NCBI RefSeq assembly: GCF_026126405.1
Contig: NZ_JAFMTQ010000001.1
Span: forward strand, 194,610-258,609
Source: Aureitalea sp. L0-47
Lineage (GTDB): Bacteria; Bacteroidota; Bacteroidia; Flavobacteriales; Flavobacteriaceae
Direction of reading: 5' to 3'
Length of the DNA stretch: 64,000 nucleotides
In this document: positions 44,401 through 54,560 of the stretch, one piece after another
Layout of the letters: every line of letters starts with the position of its first letter
Position numbering within the stretch: the first letter of the stretch is position 1
The notes under the pieces: generated by a model
Database searches by the model: none
Told to the model about the DNA's origin: nothing
The model's input: the letters and a program-made list of their open reading frames with translations, nothing else
Position numbers and translations under genes: made by a program

Positions 44401-44450
44401 AAATGAACAGATTTATGGTTATACTTGTATACCTTAAAGATAGCTTTTTA

Positions 44451-45329
44451 ATGCGTTTAAATACAAAACTTTTAATTTTAGCGCTGCTTGCATTTATAAC
44501 TACCTCTGCTCAAGAGGATTATGAGTATATCGGAGCAATTAAGTTAAATGACACTTCGTTTATTTCGTACAAAATTAACTTCAATGAAAACGACGGTTTA
44601 ATACAAGGATACTCCATTACCGACCTTGGAGGCTCTCATGAAACCATGTCCTATCTTTCGGGATCTTTCGATTCAGAGAAGGATGAAATAGAGTTTTATG
44701 AAAGTGGTATTATTTATACCAAGTCATACATCACCCAGAATGATTTCTGTTATGTTCATTTTGCGGGGAGGTTAAAAAGACTGGATGATCGACAGGGTAT
44801 TCAAGGCTCTTTCAAAGGTTTATATGACAATGGGGAATCCTGTATTAACGGTTCCATTGAAATGCTAAATTTCAGGAAGGTCCTGAGACGAGCGAAACGC
44901 CTGGATAAGAAAATCGATCGCACTATTCTGATCAGTAAAGAAAAGCGCGATAAGGTAAACCTCGTAAATGAACTTGAGCGTACAAAAATAAATATGCTCA
45001 AGAAGGACGAGGTGTTGAATGTATTTACGAATGATACTGAAATCAAACTTCGCCTTTACGATGCCGGACAGGAAGATGGCGATCGTATATCACTATATAT
45101 CAATGACAGCTTGTTATTGGATAATTATACTGTGAGCAATACACCTAAGGAGATTAGTGTCACAGTAGAAGAACCGCAAACGACCTTACTCATCCAGGCT
45201 TTGAATGCCGGTACCGTTGGTGGAAATACTGTAAAACTGGAGCTCGTACTTGATGAATCTACGGTAGTCGATGCTTTAACCAATCTAAAAGAAGGAGAGA
45301 AGGCTACCCTGGTGTTGAGGAAACGATAA
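44451..45329 (+). CDS. Hypothetical secreted protein
   Basis: Signal peptide MRLNTKLLILALLAFITTSAQ. No recognisable domain. Confidence 0.5.
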   Translation: MRLNTKLLILALLAFITTSAQEDYEYIGAIKLNDTSFISYKINFNENDGLIQGYSITDLGGSHETMSYLSGSFDSEKDEIEFYESGIIYTKSYITQNDFCYVHFAGRLKRLDDRQGIQGSFKGLYDNGESCINGSIEMLNFRKVLRRAKRLDKKIDRTILISKEKRDKVNLVNELERTKINMLKKDEVLNVFTNDTEIKLRLYDAGQEDGDRISLYINDSLLLDNYTVSNTPKEISVTVEEPQTTLLIQALNAGTVGGNTVKLELVLDESTVVDALTNLKEGEKATLVLRKR

Positions 45330-46854: not shown

Positions 46855-47493
46855 ATGCCGCTTTACAAAACTATAACAGTGAACGAAGGGACTAAGGTCC
46901 TCATTTGGAAGATAGAAGAATCCTTTGAAGCCCTTTCAGAAGGAATTGTTTTAACTGAAAACTGTCGGCAACGGGTTGATGGGATGAAAAGTGACCTGCA
47001 CCGAAGGGGTTTTATGAGTATTCGTCATTTATTAGCTGCTGAAGGCTATACGGACCATGACCTCTACTACGATGAGAATGGTAAACCTCACCTAACCGAT
47101 AATAAATTCATTTCCATTACCCATTCATTTATCTTTTCAGCAATAATCATCGGATCCGAGGAAGTAGGTATCGATATTGAAAAGCAACGTCCGAAGATCT
47201 TAAGAATAGCCCATAAATTCACACCTATCGAAGAATACCGCCATCTCGAAAATGATGAGCTGATCATGCGTAAACTCACCATGGTATGGGGCGCTAAAGA
47301 AAGCCTGTATAAAAGTTTTGCAGCTCCTGGTCTGAGTTTTTTGCAACATATCTACGTAGAGGAATTCGATATGGAAGACCTGTTTACCTCGGCCTTTGTG
47401 TCGTTTAATGGAAAAGAACAGGCGTATGATGTAAATATGCTCGAATTCGAAGGATTCACCTGCGCCTACGCCTTACTTTCTGAAGCTAGCTAA
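46855..47493 (+). CDS. 4'-phosphopantetheinyl transferase (Sfp/ACPS superfamily)
   Basis: GIDIE and WGAKESLYK motifs. Confidence 0.7.
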   Translation: MPLYKTITVNEGTKVLIWKIEESFEALSEGIVLTENCRQRVDGMKSDLHRRGFMSIRHLLAAEGYTDHDLYYDENGKPHLTDNKFISITHSFIFSAIIIGSEEVGIDIEKQRPKILRIAHKFTPIEEYRHLENDELIMRKLTMVWGAKESLYKSFAAPGLSFLQHIYVEEFDMEDLFTSAFVSFNGKEQAYDVNMLEFEGFTCAYALLSEAS

Positions 47494-48194
47494 TGAAGAT
47501 TCAAAAAACCTACAAAGCCATATTGGATGCCTCTGAGAAAAACCAGAAGTTACTGGCAGTATTGCTGGATCCTGAGAAGTTCGACCTGGAAAAAACTGCA
47601 GAATTCTTAAGAAGATTGCCTTCAGAAACCACCCACATCTTCGTTGGAGGAAGCACGGTGCCGGAAGGGCAGACACAGGAACTGGTGAATGCAATTAAAC
47701 TGCATACATCCCGTCCTGTGGTGCTGTTTCCAGGGGATGTGAGTCAGATATCAAAAAATGCAGATGCCTTGTTGTTTTTGTCACTTTTTTCGGGTGCTAA
47801 TCCTGAATACCTGGTACATCAGCAAATTAAAGCGGTTCCTTTGCTTCGTTCCATCGACCTTGAAGTGATTCCTACGGGCTATATCCTTGTGGATGGTGGA
47901 AATGATTCGGCTGTTTCGGTAGTGACGAAAACCCATCCGATTTCACAAAGTGAACCGGGACGTATTGTAGATACCGCTGTGGCGGCAGAACTTACGGGCA
48001 AGAAACTCATCTATCTCGAAGCAGGAAGTGGTGCCTTAACTCCTGTACGGGCAGAGATCATTTCAGCAGTAAAAAAAGAATTGCAAATCCCTTTAATCGT
48101 TGGTGGGGGAATCCGGACCAAAGAGCAATTGAAAGCCGCTTATGAAGCAGGAGCCGATATGGTTGTAATGGGAACAGCGTTTGAAACAAATTAA
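47493..48194 (+). CDS. Geranylgeranylglyceryl-phosphate-synthase-family (PcrB-like) TIM-barrel protein
   Basis: LLDPEK...VGGS...GGGIRT..., typical of the GGGPS/PcrB family. ATG overlaps the PPTase stop. Confidence 0.65.
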   Translation: MKIQKTYKAILDASEKNQKLLAVLLDPEKFDLEKTAEFLRRLPSETTHIFVGGSTVPEGQTQELVNAIKLHTSRPVVLFPGDVSQISKNADALLFLSLFSGANPEYLVHQQIKAVPLLRSIDLEVIPTGYILVDGGNDSAVSVVTKTHPISQSEPGRIVDTAVAAELTGKKLIYLEAGSGALTPVRAEIISAVKKELQIPLIVGGGIRTKEQLKAAYEAGADMVVMGTAFETN

Positions 48195-48205
48195 TTTATT
48201 AATCG

Positions 48206-48466
48206 ATGAAGATATCTGTTGAACTTACCCTTTCACCCTTGCAGGACGACTTCGAACCTGCGATCATTAACTTTATTAAAGCAATGCGATCGAGCGGTTT
48301 TAGAGTGCTGGAGAATCCGTTGAGCACCCAGGTATATGGAGACTACGACGAACTTATGGGGTTTCTAACTTCGGAAATGAAAACAGCTTTGAACGCCATC
48401 GACAATGGGCTTATCCACATGAAAATCGTTAAAACAGATCGAAGCGATTATGAACCACATTTTTGA
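48206..48466 (+). CDS. Small ferredoxin-fold protein, possibly MTH1187/YkoF-like (thiamine-binding family)
   Basis: 86 aa. The beta-alpha-beta pattern and size fit the family. This is a weak assignment made from sequence memory only. The gene overlaps the PnuC-type transporter start. Confidence 0.3.
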   Translation: MKISVELTLSPLQDDFEPAIINFIKAMRSSGFRVLENPLSTQVYGDYDELMGFLTSEMKTALNAIDNGLIHMKIVKTDRSDYEPHF

Positions 48467-49082
48467 GTTTTTCCTTGAACCCTATTACCAGCGTGAGAGC
48501 TACTTAATTGTGCTGGAAGCCATTGCGTTTGTTTTTGGTATTGCCAGTGTGGTGTATGCCAAAAGACGAAACATCCAGGTATACCCAACCGGGTTGATCG
48601 CTACCACAATTACCGTATACCTGTTTCTGCATGACGAACTCATGGGGGATATGATGATGAATTTTTACTATTCTGTCATGAGTATCTATGGCTGGTGGAA
48701 TTGGGCGAGAAAGAAAGACGGAAAACTCGTGGTGCCCGTCTCCCGAACCAATCTGAGGGAAAAAATCATTGGTTTTGGACTCTTTTTACTTACTATGGCG
48801 GTGACCTACGGGGTGTATACAGCCTACGGAACCGAGATCGGGCCCGGTAATTATATCGACATCTTCACTTCCGGAGTGTTTTTTACCGCCATGTGGTATA
48901 TGGCGAATAAGAAACTGGAAAACTGGACGCTTTGGATATTCGCAGATATAATTACCGTGCCTTTATATGCATACCGTGGATGGGGAATGTTGTCCCTACA
49001 ATACCTTATTTTTACAGTCCTGGCTATCCAGGGATATTTAGCATGGAAGAAACACTTAGACAAGCACCCGCAAACTGCCTGA
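48450..49082 (+). CDS. pnuC: PnuC-family nicotinamide riboside (or related vitamin) transporter
   Basis: Seven to eight TM helices with the PnuC signature W.NW and a conserved N-terminus. 210 aa. Confidence 0.75.
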   Translation: MNHIFEFFLEPYYQRESYLIVLEAIAFVFGIASVVYAKRRNIQVYPTGLIATTITVYLFLHDELMGDMMMNFYYSVMSIYGWWNWARKKDGKLVVPVSRTNLREKIIGFGLFLLTMAVTYGVYTAYGTEIGPGNYIDIFTSGVFFTAMWYMANKKLENWTLWIFADIITVPLYAYRGWGMLSLQYLIFTVLAIQGYLAWKKHLDKHPQTA

Positions 49083-49606
49083 AAATAGTTTTTTTCGGTC
49101 CGGAATCTACTGGAAAGACTACCCTGGCAACTGAACTGGCGAGGTATTTCAATACCGAATGGGTCCCTGAGTTTATGCGTGACTACCTTCAGGAAAAGTG
49201 GGATGAAAAAGGGGAGAAAATAGGCTGGGAAGATCTCATACCTATCGCCCGGGGCCAGATAGCTTCAGAAAATAACAAAGCTCAAAAAGCGAATAAAGTA
49301 CTCTTCTGCGATACCGATCTCAGGGAACTACAGGTGTACTCAGAATATTACAATAACGGTAAGTGCCCTTCCGAAATAAGAAAGGCGGTTGAAGCCAATC
49401 ATTACGACTTGTATTTTCTTACCTTCGTGGATACACCTTGGGTGGCGGACGACTTACGCGATAATCCTGAAGACCGATTGGGCATATTTCGTAATTTTGA
49501 GAACGAATTGAAATCGAAAGGACTTCCTTATCACTTACTGCGGGGAAGCAAAGAAGAGCGCATAAAAAGCGCTATTGAATTAACTGAAAAATTAGTAGGG
49601 AGATAA
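49043..49606 (+). CDS. NadR-C-terminal-type P-loop kinase (ribosylnicotinamide-kinase-like AAA_28 domain) without HTH or NMNAT domains
   Basis: KIVFFGPESTGKTTLATELA Walker A and LFCDTDL Walker B. Overlaps the PnuC-type gene's 3' end in another frame. Confidence 0.7.
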   Translation: MEETLRQAPANCLKIVFFGPESTGKTTLATELARYFNTEWVPEFMRDYLQEKWDEKGEKIGWEDLIPIARGQIASENNKAQKANKVLFCDTDLRELQVYSEYYNNGKCPSEIRKAVEANHYDLYFLTFVDTPWVADDLRDNPEDRLGIFRNFENELKSKGLPYHLLRGSKEERIKSAIELTEKLVGR

Positions 49607-51135
49607 TGTTAACTGAAAAAGATCTGCAACAATTAAAGGATCACGGAATATCACTTCAAACCATCTATAGACAATTAGAAACCTTCTCCCTGGGTATCCC
49701 TCCTGCTGATATTGTGACCGCCGCCTCCGTAGGCAATGGAATTGAGGTTATTCCTGAAGACAAACATCAAAAACTCATTGACCTTTACGAGGAAAGTAGA
49801 AACACGCTGGATATCGTAAAATTTGTCCCTGCCTCAGGTGCAGCTACCAGAATGTTCCAGTTCCTTCATAATTTCCTGGAGGAATACGATCCTGCAACTG
49901 AAACTCTTAAAGAGTATTTAAATCGTTGTCCTTCTTCAGCGCTGGAAAAATTCATAAAGCACTCGAAAGAATTCGCCTTTATAAACGAAGTGCGAAAAAT
50001 GATTCGTAAAAACTATCCGGAATACAAGAAGAACAGTAAAGGACAGCGAATGTATTGGTTCGTGAAGATGATGCTCGAGCCCGAGGGTTTGAACTTTTCC
50101 AATATGCCTAAGGGTCTTATTCCGTTTCACAAGTATTCGAAATATTATACCACAGCTTTCGAGGAACAATTGTTTGAAGCAGCCCATTATGCATCAGTAC
50201 ATGACGATGCTTATTTGCATTTCACGTTTTCAGAAAAACATGTGCCCTATTTCAAGCAGGCTTTTGAAACGATTCGCAAGCGTGTTGGTAAGAAAACGAA
50301 AACCGATTTCCATATTTCTTATTCCTTTCAGAAAAAAGAAACGGATACCCTGGCTGTAACTGAGGACAATATGCCTTTTCGCGATTCGGAAGGGAAATTG
50401 GTGTTACGACCCTCAGGTCATGGTGCACTACTGGAAAACCTGAACGATGTTGATACCGACATCATCTTCGTCAAGAATATAGACAATGTCGTAGCTGAAG
50501 ATTATTTAGAAGACACCATTTATTACAAAAAACTACTGGCTGGTAAGCTGATCTGGATTCAGAAAAAAGTATTTGCTTATCTCAACATCCTGGAGCAGGA
50601 TGAAGTTGAACATGAAGTTGTAAAGGAGATTCGGTCCTTCCTTTGGAATGAATTGAGCATTAAAGACATTCCTGAAGACCAGGATCGCCTTATGGGTATA
50701 CTCAATAGACCTATTCGAATCTGCGGCGTTGTGAAAAATACCGGTGCACCCGGCGGAGGACCATTCTGGGTGAAGAGCGAAGATGGAAGGGTGAGCCTTC
50801 AAATCGTGGAAAAGTCTCAAATAAATATGGACGATCCCCATATGGAAGCCACAGTGAACGATGCCACACATTTCAACCCGGTAGATATTGTTTGTGGAGT
50901 CCGGGACTATAAAGGCGTGAAATTCGATCTTAAATTATTTAGCGACCCCCGAAGCGGTATTATTTCCATGAAATCTGATGGAGGTACACCGGTGAAGGCG
51001 CTCGAACTTCCCGGCTTGTGGAATGGTGGAATGGCTAACTGGAATACAGCTTTCGTGGAAGTTCCACTCGAGACCTTCAATCCTGTTAAGACAGTTAACG
51101 ACCTGCTCCACAGGGAACATCGTCCTAACGCCTGA
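49606..51135 (+). CDS. DUF4301-like protein with UDPGP-type nucleotidyltransferase-like motifs
   Basis: VPASGAATRMF (compare GGxGTRLG) and RPSGHGALLENL (compare PdGnGG). About 509 aa. The ATG overlaps the kinase gene's stop. Confidence 0.4.
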   Translation: MLTEKDLQQLKDHGISLQTIYRQLETFSLGIPPADIVTAASVGNGIEVIPEDKHQKLIDLYEESRNTLDIVKFVPASGAATRMFQFLHNFLEEYDPATETLKEYLNRCPSSALEKFIKHSKEFAFINEVRKMIRKNYPEYKKNSKGQRMYWFVKMMLEPEGLNFSNMPKGLIPFHKYSKYYTTAFEEQLFEAAHYASVHDDAYLHFTFSEKHVPYFKQAFETIRKRVGKKTKTDFHISYSFQKKETDTLAVTEDNMPFRDSEGKLVLRPSGHGALLENLNDVDTDIIFVKNIDNVVAEDYLEDTIYYKKLLAGKLIWIQKKVFAYLNILEQDEVEHEVVKEIRSFLWNELSIKDIPEDQDRLMGILNRPIRICGVVKNTGAPGGGPFWVKSEDGRVSLQIVEKSQINMDDPHMEATVNDATHFNPVDIVCGVRDYKGVKFDLKLFSDPRSGIISMKSDGGTPVKALELPGLWNGGMANWNTAFVEVPLETFNPVKTVNDLLHREHRPNA

Positions 51136-51539
51136 TGAATCGTGAACAACTTCTGAAAGAACTTTCGTTTTCGGCGGCGCGTAGCAGTGGGCCCGGAGGG
51201 CAACATGTCAATAAAACATCGAGCAAAATTACCGTTCAGTTTCACGTGGATAATTCCCTCGCCCTTTCAGAAGTAGAGAAAACGCGTATCAATGAACGAC
51301 TTGCAAATAGAATAAACACCGAAGGAAACCTGGTTTTGCACTGTGGAGAAACCCGCAGCCAGCATCGAAATAAAGCGCTTGTAATACAACGACTCATAAA
51401 TCTCATCGTTGAAAACCTTCGGGTTCGTAAACCTAGAAAACGATCTAAACCCAGCAGACGCGCAATAGAAAAACGACTGGATAGTAAAAAACGACATGCG
51501 CTCAAAAAATCGCGTCGCAAACCTCCCAACATCGATTAA
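51135..51539 (+). CDS. arfB: Alternative ribosome-rescue factor / peptidyl-tRNA hydrolase ArfB (GGQ protein)
   Basis: SSGPGGQHVNKTSSKI GGQ motif. Basic C-terminal tail. Confidence 0.85.
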   Translation: MNREQLLKELSFSAARSSGPGGQHVNKTSSKITVQFHVDNSLALSEVEKTRINERLANRINTEGNLVLHCGETRSQHRNKALVIQRLINLIVENLRVRKPRKRSKPSRRAIEKRLDSKKRHALKKSRRKPPNID

Positions 51540-51559
51540 TTATTTACCTTTGCGTCACA

Positions 51560-51715
51560 TCTCTAAGGGGTGCTTTTCCAAGTGTTAAGTGAAAAGTGTT
51601 AAGTGTTAAATAGGATTGATTAATTTAAAACTTAGAACTTAAAATTTAATACTGGCTTTGGCTGAGATCATACCCGTTGAACCTGAGCAGGTAATGCTGT
51701 TTAGGGAACGAACCG
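51560..51715 (+). promoter_or_regulatory. TPP (THI-box) riboswitch with long P3 insertion, upstream of a TonB-dependent receptor
   Basis: GGGGTGC ...(~80-nt AT-rich P3 containing gtgttaag repeats)... ggCTGAGAtcatACCCgttgAACCTGAgcaGGTAATGCtgtttAGGGAA. The 3' two-thirds matches the consensus almost base for base. Confidence 0.75.
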
Positions 51716-51826
51716 AAATGGTTCATCAATGCAACCCCTATTGGACATCGTGCTTCGATAGGTTTTTTTATTTCTGAAATTAACACTGAATAAAAACCCC
51801 TTTTATTCGTATAAATATTATTACGA

Positions 51827-54004
51827 ATGAAACTGTTATCATTTTTCTCATTGTTTCTAGCCGGGACCTGCTTACTTTTTGCCCAGGAAACTCCGAAGGA
51901 TACAACCGAAGTTGAAAACCTGGATGCTGTACTTATCCAGGCCATCCGTGTAAAAGAGGATGCGCCCATAACACATTCGAACGTGGATAAAGAAGAAATC
52001 CAGAAACGCAACCTGGGCCAGGATATTCCTATTCTTCTTAACTATCTACCCTCGGTTGTCACTGCCAGTGATGCCGGAGCGGGAGTGGGGTACACTTACA
52101 TCCGTGTAAGAGGAAGCGATGCATCCCGTGTAAACGTAACCCTCAACGGAATTCCTTTCAACGATGCGGAAAGCCAGGGGACCTTCTGGGTAAATCTTCC
52201 GGATTTTGCATCCTCGGTTCAAAGTCTACAGCTCCAAAGGGGAGTAGGTACATCCACTAATGGATCAGGAGCTTTCGGAGCAAGTTTAAATATTCTAACC
52301 GATGCTATTTCTGAAGAAGCATTCGCCGAACTGGCTAATTCTGTTGGGTCTTTCAATACCCGGAAACACACACTGCGGTTCAGTACGGGAATACTTAACG
52401 ATCACTTTGAAGTTTCAGGACGTTTGTCCAACATAGCTTCCGATGGGTACATAGACCGTGCTTCTTCCGATCTGAAGTCGTATTTTCTCCAGGCCGCGTA
52501 TCGCGATTCCAATACCCAGTTGAAACTCCTTGCGTTCGGCGGAAGGGAAGAGACCTACCAGGCGTATTTCGGGATCGATGCAGAAACCCTGGAAAATGAC
52601 AGGACCTTTAATCCCGCAGGGTTGTATACCGATGAGAATGGGAATATTCAATTTTACGACAATGAAGTAGATAATTACGCCCAGGATCACTATCAACTGA
52701 TCTGGAACCAGCGATATAATAACCGCTGGAGTTCTAATGTTTCCCTAAACTATACCTACGGAAGAGGTTACTTTGAGCAATTCAAAGAAGACGGTGATCT
52801 GGAATTCCATGGCATCGGCCCAATCGAGATAGGAGGAGAAACCATTACCAATGCCGATCTTATTCGAAGAAGGTGGCTTGATAACGATTTTTATGCCATC
52901 AATGCGGATGTGCAGTATAAGGAACAAGGGTTTGATATTACAAGTGGTGCTTTCTACAGCTACTACGATGGGGATCACTTCGGAGAGGTGATCTGGTCAC
53001 AATTTGCAGGAAATACAAGAATTCGCGACAGGTACTATTTTGGAGTGGGTGAAAAAAGCGAGTTCACCATCTTTTCAAAGGCGAATATAGAAATCGATGA
53101 TCAGTGGTCGGTGTTCGCAGACTTGCAAGGGAGATTCATCAACTACGATACCTCGGGGAATACAGCGGACCTGATAGATCTGAATTTTTCTGAGAACTAC
53201 AATTTCTTTAACCCCAAAGGAGGGATCTCTTTTGAATTGAATCAGGCCAATCAATTCTATGCTTCCTACGGAAGAGCCAACCGGGAACCACGCCGTAGCG
53301 ATTTTGAACAGGGGATTTTTACGCCGGAAAGTCTGAACGATTATGAATTGGGTTGGAGGTATAATTCGGAAAAGGTACAGGTGAATACCAATGCCTATTT
53401 CATGGATTACAGGGATCAACTCGTGCTAACCGGGGAGATAGACGATGTTGGAGCTGCATTAAGAGCTACGAGCGGAAAGAGTTACCGACTAGGCCTGGAG
53501 GTGGATGCTACTGTAACTCTTTCAGAAAAATTCACACTACGGCCAAACATTGCATTGAGCTCGAATAAGAATGTTGATTTTGTAACGTCAAGGGATGGCC
53601 AGTTCGTAAACCTGGGGAATACCAATATTTCATTCTCACCTGAGATCGTGGGAGGAAGTAGTATTGAATACCGTCCTCTGAAAAACCTGCAAATTGCCTG
53701 GCTCTCTAAATATGTGGGCGAGCAATATATGGGTAATATAGATAGTGATGTTTCAAAGCTTGATGCCTATTTTATCAACGATCTTAACGTAGTGTATGAG
53801 TTGGAGAATGTACGGGTGGCCAAGTCGGTAGTGCTTACGGCTCTGGTAAACAACATTTTCAATGTGGAATATGTAGCAAATGGCTACTTCTTTACTTTTG
53901 ATGATGATTTCAGCAATCCGGGAACAGTAACCACGGTTGAAGGAGCGGGATTTTATCCACAGGCGACGATTAATTTCCTGTTGGGAGCTTCGATATTGTT
54001 CTAG
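51827..54004 (+). CDS. TonB-dependent outer membrane receptor (candidate thiamin/TPP-regulated transporter)
   Basis: Signal peptide, plug domain, 22-strand barrel, C-terminal aromatic F. Lies downstream of the TPP riboswitch. Confidence 0.85.
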   Translation: MKLLSFFSLFLAGTCLLFAQETPKDTTEVENLDAVLIQAIRVKEDAPITHSNVDKEEIQKRNLGQDIPILLNYLPSVVTASDAGAGVGYTYIRVRGSDASRVNVTLNGIPFNDAESQGTFWVNLPDFASSVQSLQLQRGVGTSTNGSGAFGASLNILTDAISEEAFAELANSVGSFNTRKHTLRFSTGILNDHFEVSGRLSNIASDGYIDRASSDLKSYFLQAAYRDSNTQLKLLAFGGREETYQAYFGIDAETLENDRTFNPAGLYTDENGNIQFYDNEVDNYAQDHYQLIWNQRYNNRWSSNVSLNYTYGRGYFEQFKEDGDLEFHGIGPIEIGGETITNADLIRRRWLDNDFYAINADVQYKEQGFDITSGAFYSYYDGDHFGEVIWSQFAGNTRIRDRYYFGVGEKSEFTIFSKANIEIDDQWSVFADLQGRFINYDTSGNTADLIDLNFSENYNFFNPKGGISFELNQANQFYASYGRANREPRRSDFEQGIFTPESLNDYELGWRYNSEKVQVNTNAYFMDYRDQLVLTGEIDDVGAALRATSGKSYRLGLEVDATVTLSEKFTLRPNIALSSNKNVDFVTSRDGQFVNLGNTNISFSPEIVGGSSIEYRPLKNLQIAWLSKYVGEQYMGNIDSDVSKLDAYFINDLNVVYELENVRVAKSVVLTALVNNIFNVEYVANGYFFTFDDDFSNPGTVTTVEGAGFYPQATINFLLGASILF

Positions 54005-54438
54005 TTTGTAACCCGAATTACATCACCTGTTCGAACAACTCGGTATTGTTGTATGGGATAGACGTTGTTCTTGGTCCTGTGTTGGCCGGTAACAACATCA
54101 TACTCATTATCGTCACTCTCACAAGGGCAACTTAGTATGATACCGTTTATCTCCATTCTTGAGCAACTATTAGGGATGTGGTTGGGGTCACTCAATTCCG
54201 AAGCGGTGTACAGATCATTGTTGACATTATGAATCAAGATACCTTTTATTCCCTGTTGGCTTATAACAATGTTATTGCCGGGAAATTTCAAGGGATCGTA
54301 TTGTGGAAGGTTTAGATTTAGGGTTAAATTAACGATCGGGTTGGTTAAATATGGGTTGTTATCCTGAACGCCACCATCGTCACTTTTACAGGAAGCCAGT
54401 AAAACAAGGCTAACAAGAGTTAATATCTTCAATTTCAT
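54001..54438 (-). CDS. Hypothetical lipoprotein with Cys-rich C-terminal region
   Basis: Lipobox LLASCKSDD; CSRME...CPCESDD. Convergent with the receptor gene. Confidence 0.5.
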   Translation of the reverse strand: MKLKILTLVSLVLLASCKSDDGGVQDNNPYLTNPIVNLTLNLNLPQYDPLKFPGNNIVISQQGIKGILIHNVNNDLYTASELSDPNHIPNSCSRMEINGIILSCPCESDDNEYDVVTGQHRTKNNVYPIQQYRVVRTGDVIRVTN

Positions 54439-54560
54439 AGTTGCAAATTTTGAGAGCGGAAAAGTACGAAAAATCGCAAAAAAGTATTTTTTCGTATCTT
54501 TGACGAACAAAATCCCGTCACGTATGGGATTTTTTGTGTTTTAGTTAAAACGATGAAGTT

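Follow-up and report, generated by a model that had tools for sequence, protein, structure and literature searches.

A Pnu-family transporter, a NadR-type kinase and a DUF4301 protein with a predicted UDPGP-type nucleotidyltransferase fold form a recurrent gene cassette in Flavobacteriaceae

Results

The cassette and its operon

A 64,000-nt stretch of the Aureitalea sp. L0-47 genome (RefSeq assembly GCF_026126405.1, contig NZ_JAFMTQ010000001.1, forward-strand positions 194,610 to 258,609), called the window here, carries a cassette of four genes that overlap or abut on the plus strand at 48206-51135. They encode a small MTH1187/YkoF-family protein, a Pnu-family vitamin transporter, a stand-alone kinase related to the C-terminal domain of NadR, and a protein of the DUF4301 family (Table 1). 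An earlier note on this DNA, made from the letters alone, had described these four genes and proposed that the DUF4301 protein supplies a missing nucleotidyltransferase of riboside salvage. The interval it assigned to the cassette, 48206-51539, also holds a fifth gene, that of ArfB, which it did not describe, and the operon begins two genes earlier.

In the open reading frame (ORF) list of the window, positions 46855-51539 of the plus strand are made up of seven genes with nearly no intergenic space, the sole gap being 11 nt. The stop of the 4'-phosphopantetheinyl transferase (PPTase) gene, which opens the operon, shares 1 nt with the start of the PcrB gene; the last 17 nt of the 86-aa gene belong to the Pnu gene as well; the Pnu and kinase genes overlap by 40 nt; the kinase stop and DUF4301 start overlap by 1 nt (TAATG); and the DUF4301 stop shares 1 nt (TGATG) with the start of the final gene, that of ArfB.

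Table 1. Features of the window and of related loci. Positions refer to the window unless a locus (L number) is given.
Feature	Position	Strand	Evidence or remark
PPTase	46855..47493	+	PF01648 E 1.7e-10; opens operon
PcrB / geranylgeranylglyceryl-phosphate synthase family protein	47493..48194	+	NF003198 272 bits (cutoff 247); PF01884 E 1.7e-35
MTH1187/YkoF-family protein (PF01910, 'thiamine-binding protein'), 86 aa	48206..48466	+	PF01910 E 3.7e-4
Pnu-family (PnuC/PnuT/PnuX) facilitated-diffusion vitamin transporter, 210 aa	48450..49082	+	PF04973 E 7.6e-51
Stand-alone P-loop kinase, homologue of NadR ribosylnicotinamide-kinase (C-terminal) domain, 187 aa	49043..49606	+	PF13521 AAA_28 E 9.7e-43
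DUF4301 protein, 509 aa, predicted divergent UDPGP-fold (GT-A class) nucleotidyltransferase	49606..51135	+	PF14134 E 1.2e-197
ArfB, alternative ribosome-rescue peptidyl-tRNA hydrolase	51135..51539	+	NF006718 118.6 bits (cutoff 100); GGQ motif
Probable thiamine pyrophosphate (TPP) riboswitch aptamer (THI element, RF00059), 81-nt P3 insertion	51556..51724	+	33.2 bits, E 6.3e-5
Terminator-like hairpin and T-run	51737..51772	+	9-bp stem, then TTTTTTTATT; directly after aptamer
TonB-dependent outer-membrane receptor	51827..54004	+	plug and beta-barrel domains; TPP riboswitch upstream
Example TPP elements in relatives	L001:4603-4656; L010:13590-13642; L065:12870-12820	L065: -	
GalE near DUF4301	L173:3401-4435; L174:3417-4445; L132:12253-13290 (also L163, L164)		lineages without PnuC/kinase

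The small protein, the transporter and the kinase

On its own the 86-aa protein stayed under the PF01910 cutoff (20.8 versus 24.9 bits). The family was matched by 28 of 28 orthologues (best 1.1e-8), and the orthologue profile matched the PDB structures of SP2199 (2ibo, 2.9e-6), MJ1052 (2eky also matched) and YkoF (1s7h). By these comparisons the protein belongs to the MTH1187/YkoF family, with a predicted ferredoxin-like domain of ~90 aa, and the description of it in the earlier note as a ferredoxin-fold protein, possibly thiamin-binding-like, was borne out.

The transporter scored 80.6 bits against TIGR01528 (cutoff 42) and matched the PnuC structure 4QTN (E 1.3e-8). It has a predicted seven-transmembrane PF04973 core with the family motif WxxW(x)3D/N in transmembrane segment 6, present as WTLWIFAD, and it was rightly called a member of the PnuC family. 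The motif is a signature of the Pnu family that does not tell substrates apart, so that the substrate class is not readable from it; Pnu transporters are typically paired with a kinase that traps their substrate (PMC5749112).

The start of the kinase was placed at the ATG at 49043, though its ORF was listed from 48932. The protein covers only positions 165-318 of TIGR01526 (105 bits, cutoff 341) and positions 233-383 of PRK08099 (76, cutoff 201), and its closest solved relatives are NadR kinase domains (9x6f, 8.8e-16; 8x7f, 8.5e-14; 1lw7, 7.9e-9). Its motifs include Walker A GPESTGKT, E[YF]xRx[YF] and Walker B LFCDTD; besides the ATP motifs it shares with NadR kinase domains the acceptor-side blocks NTxWxxE[YF]xRx[YF], DTDxxxxQ and W[VA]DDxLR. 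It is thereby placed in the NadR ribosylnicotinamide-kinase (RNK) domain family (AAA_28), with nicotinamide riboside as its predicted acceptor. Because 187 aa leave no room for a helix-turn-helix (HTH) or a nicotinamide mononucleotide (NMN) adenylyltransferase (NMNAT) domain, it corresponds to the C-terminal domain of NadR only, as had been read from the letters, and is not a bi- or trifunctional NadR, in which an NMNAT domain lies N-terminal to RNK. The nicotinamide riboside-binding residues published for phage Bas30_86 were considered as a test of kinase specificity and set aside: their numbering was unmappable on the PDB match, and the site rests on AF3 docking.

Fold and conserved motifs of the DUF4301 protein

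An AlphaFold2 model of the DUF4301 protein built from 55 homologues had a mean predicted local distance difference test score (pLDDT) of 91 and a predicted template-modelling score (pTM) of 0.90. When the model was compared with the PDB by Foldseek, the top 50 matches were all uridine diphosphate (UDP)-glucose or UDP-N-acetylglucosamine (UDP-GlcNAc) pyrophosphorylases (best E 1e-11, probability 1.0). The modelled structure has a central GT-A (Rossmann-like alpha/beta) fold with a C-terminal part of the UDPGP type, which agrees with the nucleotidyltransferase fold on which the earlier proposal depended.

At the level of sequence the relationship to UDPGP enzymes is very remote, at 12-20% identity. 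PF01704 gave 16.1 bits, short of its gathering cutoff of 22, and matched aa 271-297 only, and a PDB sequence search with the single DUF4301 protein gave no match. The best PDB profile match of the family profile was yeast Ugp1, reached only at E 0.28; the alignment was co-linear and paired PSGHGAL with PPGHGDL, LQIVE with LLEVAQ, HFNP with NFNT, and TFNPVKTVNDLL with RFLPVKTCSDLL.

The two motifs that had been quoted from the protein, ASGAATRMF (aa 76-84) and RPSGHGALLENL (aa 268-279), are present. Across 143 DUF4301 sequences, down to 39% identity, PASGAATRM, PK (168-169), HFTxS, SFQ, RPxGHG, KNxDN, PGGGP, LQIVE, HFNPxD and FNPVK were conserved in at least 95%. The UDPGP catalytic motifs PxGHG(D), NxDN and FxPVK are represented by RPSGHG (268-273), KNIDN (290-294) and FNPVK (491-495). 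The Gly-rich signature L(X)2GXGTXM(X)4PK may correspond to an invariant PASGAATRM (75-83) and an invariant PK, with Ala or Ser at the first Gly positions and a spacing of ~80 residues; the model fills this spacing with a five-helix insertion where other UDPGP members have four residues. The N-terminal ~70 residues had no counterpart in the motif mapping.

Because all residues of UDPGP catalysis stay unchanged across 39% sequence divergence, DUF4301 is almost certainly an active enzyme, though of a divergent branch. The very remote homology and the ~80-residue insertion both fit a shifted specificity. PF01467 and the NCBIfam NMNAT models gave no match on any cassette protein; since the DUF4301 fold is moreover of the GT-A class, the protein does not belong to the HIGH-motif NMNAT family, although it could conceivably catalyse the same reaction. 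We found no functional literature for DUF4301, PF14134 or IPR025393.

Linkage and fusion with the transporter and the kinase

Linkage was examined in a scan with one genome per species, which listed 80 loci, nearly all from Flavobacteriaceae (at least 80, as further DUF4301 relatives may exist); the neighbourhood set came to 176 loci in total and the protein set to 323 DUF4301 sequences. PnuC and the kinase lay immediately upstream of DUF4301 in 72 of the 80 loci listed, and the DUF4301 proteins so linked diverge to 39% identity. Within Flavobacteriaceae this adjacency proves little, because the whole block is syntenic (S-adenosylhomocysteinase on the minus strand, PPTase, PcrB, small protein, PnuC, kinase, DUF4301, ArfB, TonB receptor), so that PPTase and ArfB are equally linked.

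Fusions and unrelated neighbourhoods were more telling. At least five lineages encode the kinase and DUF4301 as a single polypeptide, joined at a different point in each, and the fused proteins retain the motifs of both domains. Two of the fusions were found in separate assemblies. The fusion events were judged independent, since identity among the fused proteins is 43-66%, whereas P0112, itself a fusion, shares 85% identity with a protein that is not fused. All DUF4301 proteins of at least 560 aa among the 323 sequences were kinase fusions, and none of the 323 was fused to ArfB, despite the ArfB gene also overlapping by 1 nt. A Bacteroidota metagenome-assembled genome (L089) has the order response regulator, PnuC, kinase-DUF4301 fusion in a wholly different neighbourhood, with parts 34-42% identical to those of the window, and on a second contig (L091) PnuC and a kinase-DUF4301 fusion follow an unrelated gene. 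The repeated fusions, the fact that all long DUF4301 proteins are kinase fusions, and the occurrence of the trio in unrelated neighbourhoods are good evidence for a functional coupling between kinase and DUF4301. The linkage outside this genome that the earlier note had called for was thus found, and not by synteny alone.

In two loci (L064:5974-8524 and L070:6203-8536) PnuC is kept upstream of DUF4301 and the intervening 170-410 nt had no kinase match; in a third (L046) the kinase is fragmented.

DUF4301 in other genomic contexts

The DUF4301 family comprises 2768 clusters at 50% identity and occurs in most Bacteroidota and in some Desulfobacterota and Calditrichota; viral contigs held no DUF4301 relatives. 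No recurrent alternative partner emerged from the 176 loci. On a TARA scaffold (L121:4141-7488), DUF4301 forms a two-gene operon, with a 19-nt gap, with a eukaryote-type glycogen synthase of glycosyltransferase family 3 (GT3; PF05693). This operon is flanked by a glycoside hydrolase family 31 (GH31) alpha-glucosidase and a GT4/GT5-like transferase on one side and by phosphoglucose isomerase on the other. True GalE (TIGR01179, 402 and 394 bits) is encoded divergently at 0.6 kb from DUF4301 in two related lineages, and at 4.7 kb in a lineage of Bacteroidales (Table 1).

Most other neighbours were uninformative. An FGGY kinase and a YhcH-family protein were single cases, and DUF218 (L172), hemerythrin and ZnuA were further singletons beside unlinked DUF4301 genes. 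YjbQ/UPF0047 genes occurred beside or near DUF4301 in three loci (L097:514-924, L099:3917-4327 and L082:9593-9994). In one widespread Bacteroidales lineage (L083:5375-5986; also L084 and L085), a riboflavin synthase alpha chain gene (Lum_binding) lies 15 nt upstream on the same strand; it was considered as a sign of a flavin mononucleotide adenylyltransferase role and dropped, as it is confined to that lineage. A protein of ~738 aa, RelA/SpoT-like as judged by reading its sequence, is encoded divergently from DUF4301 in 31 Bacteroidales-type loci (e.g. L140, L116, L132); it was rejected as a functional partner, being on the opposite strand and probably a matter of lineage synteny.

A probable TPP riboswitch upstream of the TonB receptor

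A permissive Rfam scan detected a probable TPP riboswitch between the operon and the TonB receptor gene. The match covers the full RF00059 model (1-105) with all THI-box cores and lies under the gathering score of 54.3. At the gathering threshold, Rfam found no riboswitch in the window and 19 loci, a misleading result since default scans miss the element. A profile of its core matched at E <= 4e-11 in ~75 related loci, in every case on the strand of the receptor and 100-250 nt before it; the rest of the 4.3 Mb gave essentially no match. The core stays with the receptor whether the latter directly follows the cassette or sits 5 kb off, and the riboswitch belongs to the receptor unit, outside the cassette. 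The hairpin that follows the aptamer probably serves as expression platform of the riboswitch and also ends the operon before it; terminator-like sites in the region overall were no commoner than in shuffled sequence. The receptor, itself a conserved neighbour in related loci, is a candidate OMthi-like thiamine receptor by analogy with OMthi BT2390, and gut Bacteroidetes have a thiamine operon of the order riboswitch-OMthi-pnuT-tnr3 (PMC5613172).

The conserved riboswitch lends support to the alternative raised in the earlier note, that another imported vitamin such as thiamine might be nucleotidylated. The TonB receptor would then import thiamine, the Pnu protein would be PnuT, and thiamine or one of its precursors would be the ligand of the 86-aa protein; trapping would fall to the P-loop kinase in place of thiamine pyrophosphokinase, and DUF4301 would nucleotidylate thiamine phosphate, giving for example adenosine-thiamine di- or triphosphate. 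Consistent with this, the riboswitch stands directly upstream of the adjacent receptor and is kept in the ~75 loci, and nothing pnuT- or tnr3-like follows the receptor, the nearest Pnu gene and kinase being those of the cassette. The small protein is in the family of YkoF, which binds thiamine and hydroxymethylpyrimidine, YjbQ/UPF0047 is encoded upstream of DUF4301 in L097 and L099, and the Pnu signature does not separate substrates. However, the kinase, whose acceptor-side motifs are conserved, clearly belongs to the ribosylnicotinamide kinases of the NadR type, and the cassette has no riboswitch of its own: the Pnu gene begins within the gene before it, and Rfam matched nothing upstream when the whole window was scanned. 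Known pnuT genes, moreover, were recognised through THI elements, and the trio in L089 has neither a TonB receptor nor a THI box. We also know of no established essential role for nucleotidylated thiamine that would explain so widespread a family.

Other operon members and flanking sequence

Nearly every Flavobacteriaceae locus keeps the PPTase gene ahead of the cassette, to which it has no apparent functional connection. PcrB is a variable member, present in about two-thirds of related loci and absent from about one-third; its occurrence in the window places a homologue of an archaeal-type ether-lipid enzyme family (geranylgeranylglyceryl-phosphate synthase) in translational coupling with PPTase in a bacterial housekeeping operon. 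ArfB is functionally unrelated to the cassette. Matches to the Flavo-1 small RNA (RF01705) lie between the S-adenosylhomocysteinase and PPTase genes in some relatives (L067:4322-4400 and 104-187; L086:4641-4707), and the 64-kb window had no match to this RNA.

Elsewhere in the window, ribosomal protein L21 (42978-43700) has a C-terminal extension of ~140 aa with a helix-hairpin-helix domain; in another locus (L176) L21 carries a Rho_N-like extension. Two conserved-looking ORFs had no Pfam match: one on the plus strand at 44403-45329 (308 aa, signal-like N-terminus) and one on the minus strand at 54001-54510 (169 aa, lipoprotein-like), convergent with the TonB receptor gene.

Discussion

A possible vitamin-riboside salvage module

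Our leading interpretation, which we hold only tentatively and at somewhat less than even confidence, is that the cassette is a vitamin-riboside salvage module in which DUF4301 nucleotidylates the product of the kinase. A cationic vitamin, which we infer to be most likely nicotinamide riboside, would diffuse inward through the Pnu-family channel, and the NadR-type P-loop kinase would trap it as the 5'-phosphate, NMN. DUF4301 would couple the product of the kinase with the nucleoside monophosphate part of a nucleoside triphosphate (NTP), releasing pyrophosphate (PPi); with ATP as the predicted NTP, the reaction would be NMN + ATP -> NAD+ + PPi, where NAD is nicotinamide adenine dinucleotide. 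That DUF4301 acts on the kinase product is argued from the fusions and from the deep conservation of the trio, and the reaction of NMN with an NTP to give NAD would be the simplest, since the kinase is of the NadR type. Together, the kinase and DUF4301 would then be analogous to bifunctional NadR but with an unrelated fold. Where PnuC and the kinase are absent, DUF4301 may use NMN from elsewhere, such as from NAD-dependent DNA ligase or NadV. The stronger claim, that DUF4301 adds to the NMNATs a third class without structural relation to the others (of GT-A/UDPGP rather than HIGH-motif Rossmann fold) and is with the kinase a convergent analogue of NadR, we consider doubtful.

The arrangement resembles PnuC-NadR salvage as found in Haemophilus influenzae, Salmonella, Lactococcus lactis and the phage NARP3 system Bas30_87/86, in which a Pnu transporter likewise adjoins an RNK domain. 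There, too, RNK is adjacent or fused to a nucleotidyltransferase, and a sequence of transport, trapping by phosphorylation and nucleotidyl transfer would match. Unlike NadR, the window cassette has neither an HTH nor a Rossmann/HIGH-motif NMNAT; the partner is C-terminal rather than N-terminal to the kinase and has an unrelated, predicted GT-A/UDPGP fold. DUF4301 is also widespread without the kinase, and its NMN activity is putative. Bifunctional kinase/pyrophosphorylase salvage enzymes such as Bacteroides Fkp and AmgK-MurU also pair a kinase with a nucleotidyltransferase that forms a nucleoside diphosphate (NDP) compound; the two work one after the other on a compound taken up by the cell, in some cases as one fused protein. 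Their kinases are anomeric sugar kinases of the GHMP or APH type, whereas that of the window is a nucleoside-kinase-like P-loop enzyme and its transporter is of the Pnu type. The riboswitch-OMthi-pnuT-tnr3 operon likewise has a TPP-controlled TonB receptor close to a Pnu transporter and a trapping kinase, but in the window the gene order differs, the receptor stands alone behind the riboswitch, the kinase is of the NadR type rather than a thiamine pyrophosphokinase, and the MTH1187/YkoF-like and DUF4301 genes are extra.

Evidence that weighs against the salvage interpretation

A number of observations weigh against nucleotidylation of NMN by DUF4301. PncC, NadD and NadE complete salvage from NMN to NAD. 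The NMN deamidase PncC has been reported in Bacteroidetes, Flavobacterium johnsoniae among them (PMC3855486), so that a direct adenylyltransferase step is not strictly required. The step that the earlier note expected after the kinase, as in the canonical PnuC/NadR route, is thus not necessarily missing, and the premise of a missing step is weak. Apart from PnuC and the kinase, no NAD gene was found near DUF4301 in the 176 loci. A tblastn search of all loci with Escherichia coli GalU, NadD, NadE, PncC and PncB queries gave no match, the sample being too small to speak for genome-wide presence.

The function of DUF4301 is also independent of this transporter and kinase. When metagenomes were scanned with a Bacteroidales member of the family as seed, 75 of the 80 loci listed had no PnuC or kinase, and the other five were all of the Flavobacteriaceae block type. 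There is likewise no PnuC or kinase near DUF4301 in Desulfatibacillum, Syntrophales, Calditrichota and several other lineages. Within Aquimarina, two loci (L026:6234-8557 and L031) have DUF4301 directly after PPTase, the small protein, PnuC and kinase having been lost, and others (L010, L012) retain all three. When 82 linked and 61 unlinked DUF4301 proteins were compared, 96 columns were conserved at 95% or more in both groups and no column was fixed differently between them; because the conserved columns are common to both, the activity is presumably the same everywhere.

Further points concern the enzyme and its neighbours. DUF4301 appears to conserve the residues through which UDP-glucose and UDP-GlcNAc pyrophosphorylases (UGP and UAP) contact uracil (the Gln in SFQ) and the sugar (the Glu in LQIVE and the Asn in HFNP); these are presumably the contact residues, the mapping leaning partly on UGP and AGX1 sequences. 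We know of no UDPGP-family enzyme with an acceptor other than a sugar-1-phosphate. The only neighbour theme for unlinked DUF4301, UDP-glucose metabolism, was seen in three lineages and is no more than suggestive. Doubt about the substrate also comes from thiamine-flavoured neighbours, both the PF01910 protein and the TonB receptor unit with its TPP riboswitch, and PPTase, PcrB and ArfB are so plainly unrelated in function that adjacency alone is weak evidence. Finally, a DUF4301 protein of Prevotella ruminicola reached an abundance that allowed its quantification in a rumen metaproteome, and such abundance would not be usual in an NMNAT. The wide unlinked spread, the UDP-glucose neighbours, PncC and the unrelated operon genes are the reasons why, of the proposal that DUF4301 is the missing nucleotidyltransferase of a riboside pathway, the fold and the linkage stood and the role went beyond the evidence; overall, the earlier interpretation is partly supported.

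Alternative functions of DUF4301

The best-surviving alternative is that DUF4301 serves Bacteroidota as their housekeeping pyrophosphorylase for UDP-glucose, or for UDP-sugars broadly, a highly divergent member of the eukaryote-type enzymes that would feed GT3 glycogen synthase and GalE. PnuC and the kinase would then be a self-sufficient nicotinamide riboside trap finished by PncC-NadD-NadE, and the fusions would be tolerated accidents of overlapping genes. We think this possible though on the whole unlikely; it and the NMN interpretation carry similar weight, and the lines of evidence for the two are not reconciled. The PxGHG, KNxDN and FxPVKT motifs match those of UGPases, co-linearly with yeast Ugp1, the predicted fold is that of UDPGP, and the uracil- and sugar-contact positions appear to be retained. 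It also counts in favour that DUF4301 commonly occurs as a lone gene independent of the module and is detectable in a rumen metaproteome, and the operon of the window includes the unrelated PPTase, PcrB and ArfB. Bacteroidetes lack GlgC (PMC10395257) yet carry GT3 glycogen synthases (PMC11046441), the title of one paper indicates UDP-glucose-dependent glycogen synthesis in Prevotella, and the operon in L121 and the GalE neighbours would fit such a route. A pyrophosphorylase role, however, gives no reason why DUF4301 should have been fused with the kinase independently at least five times and leaves unexplained the survival of the trio at 34-42% identity in unrelated neighbourhoods. The GT3 glycogen synthase adjoins DUF4301 in only 1 of the 176 loci, and about two chance matches would be expected among the neighbours sampled if, by our own estimate, ~12 glucose or UDP-glucose genes per genome count as a match. 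PF01704, moreover, detects true UGPases across distant kingdoms but not DUF4301. The family differs from UDPGP (PF01704; UDP-glucose, UDP-GlcNAc and UDP-sugar pyrophosphorylases) in being a separate family (PF14134) below its gathering threshold, in the ~80 helical residues predicted between GxxTRM and PK, in being mostly confined to Bacteroidota, and in its P-loop kinase fusions.

It is improbable that DUF4301 nucleotidylates some other phosphorylated metabolite, or is regulatory with the kinase domain as a nucleotide sensor. The helical insertion inside the nucleotide-binding signature and the N-terminal residues without a counterpart would be in keeping with such a role, as would the heterogeneous neighbourhoods outside Flavobacteriales (riboflavin synthase in L083, DUF218 in L172, a divergent RelA/SpoT gene in 31 loci) and the absence of literature that we could find on the family. 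Against it, the invariant catalytic residues argue for an active enzyme, and no recurrent alternative partner was seen. The thiamine pathway outlined above, with its NadR-type kinase and a riboswitch that belongs to the receptor, we regard as the least probable of these explanations.

Implications

DUF4301 was already catalogued as a domain of unknown function, and the fold class, transporter, kinase and riboswitch are of known kinds. What is new is the predicted assignment of DUF4301, from sequence motifs and a structural model, to the UDPGP-type nucleotidyltransferases with a distinctive insertion, together with its recurrent fusion to a NadR-type kinase in an architecture of PnuC, kinase and nucleotidyltransferase. 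In addition, a TonB receptor with a probable TPP riboswitch in control was recognised as a conserved neighbour in Flavobacteriaceae, overlooked at the default Rfam threshold. A large orphan family is thereby narrowed to a predicted active UDPGP-fold nucleotidyltransferase with two concrete candidate reactions. If DUF4301 uses NMN, it would be a new fold class of NMNAT and part of an analogue of NadR, and Bacteroidota would have a direct route from NMN to NAD that current pathway reconstructions overlook. If it is instead a UDP-sugar pyrophosphorylase, it would be the source of NDP-glucose for the GlgC-less, GT3-type glycogen pathway, including that of gut and rumen Bacteroides and Prevotella.

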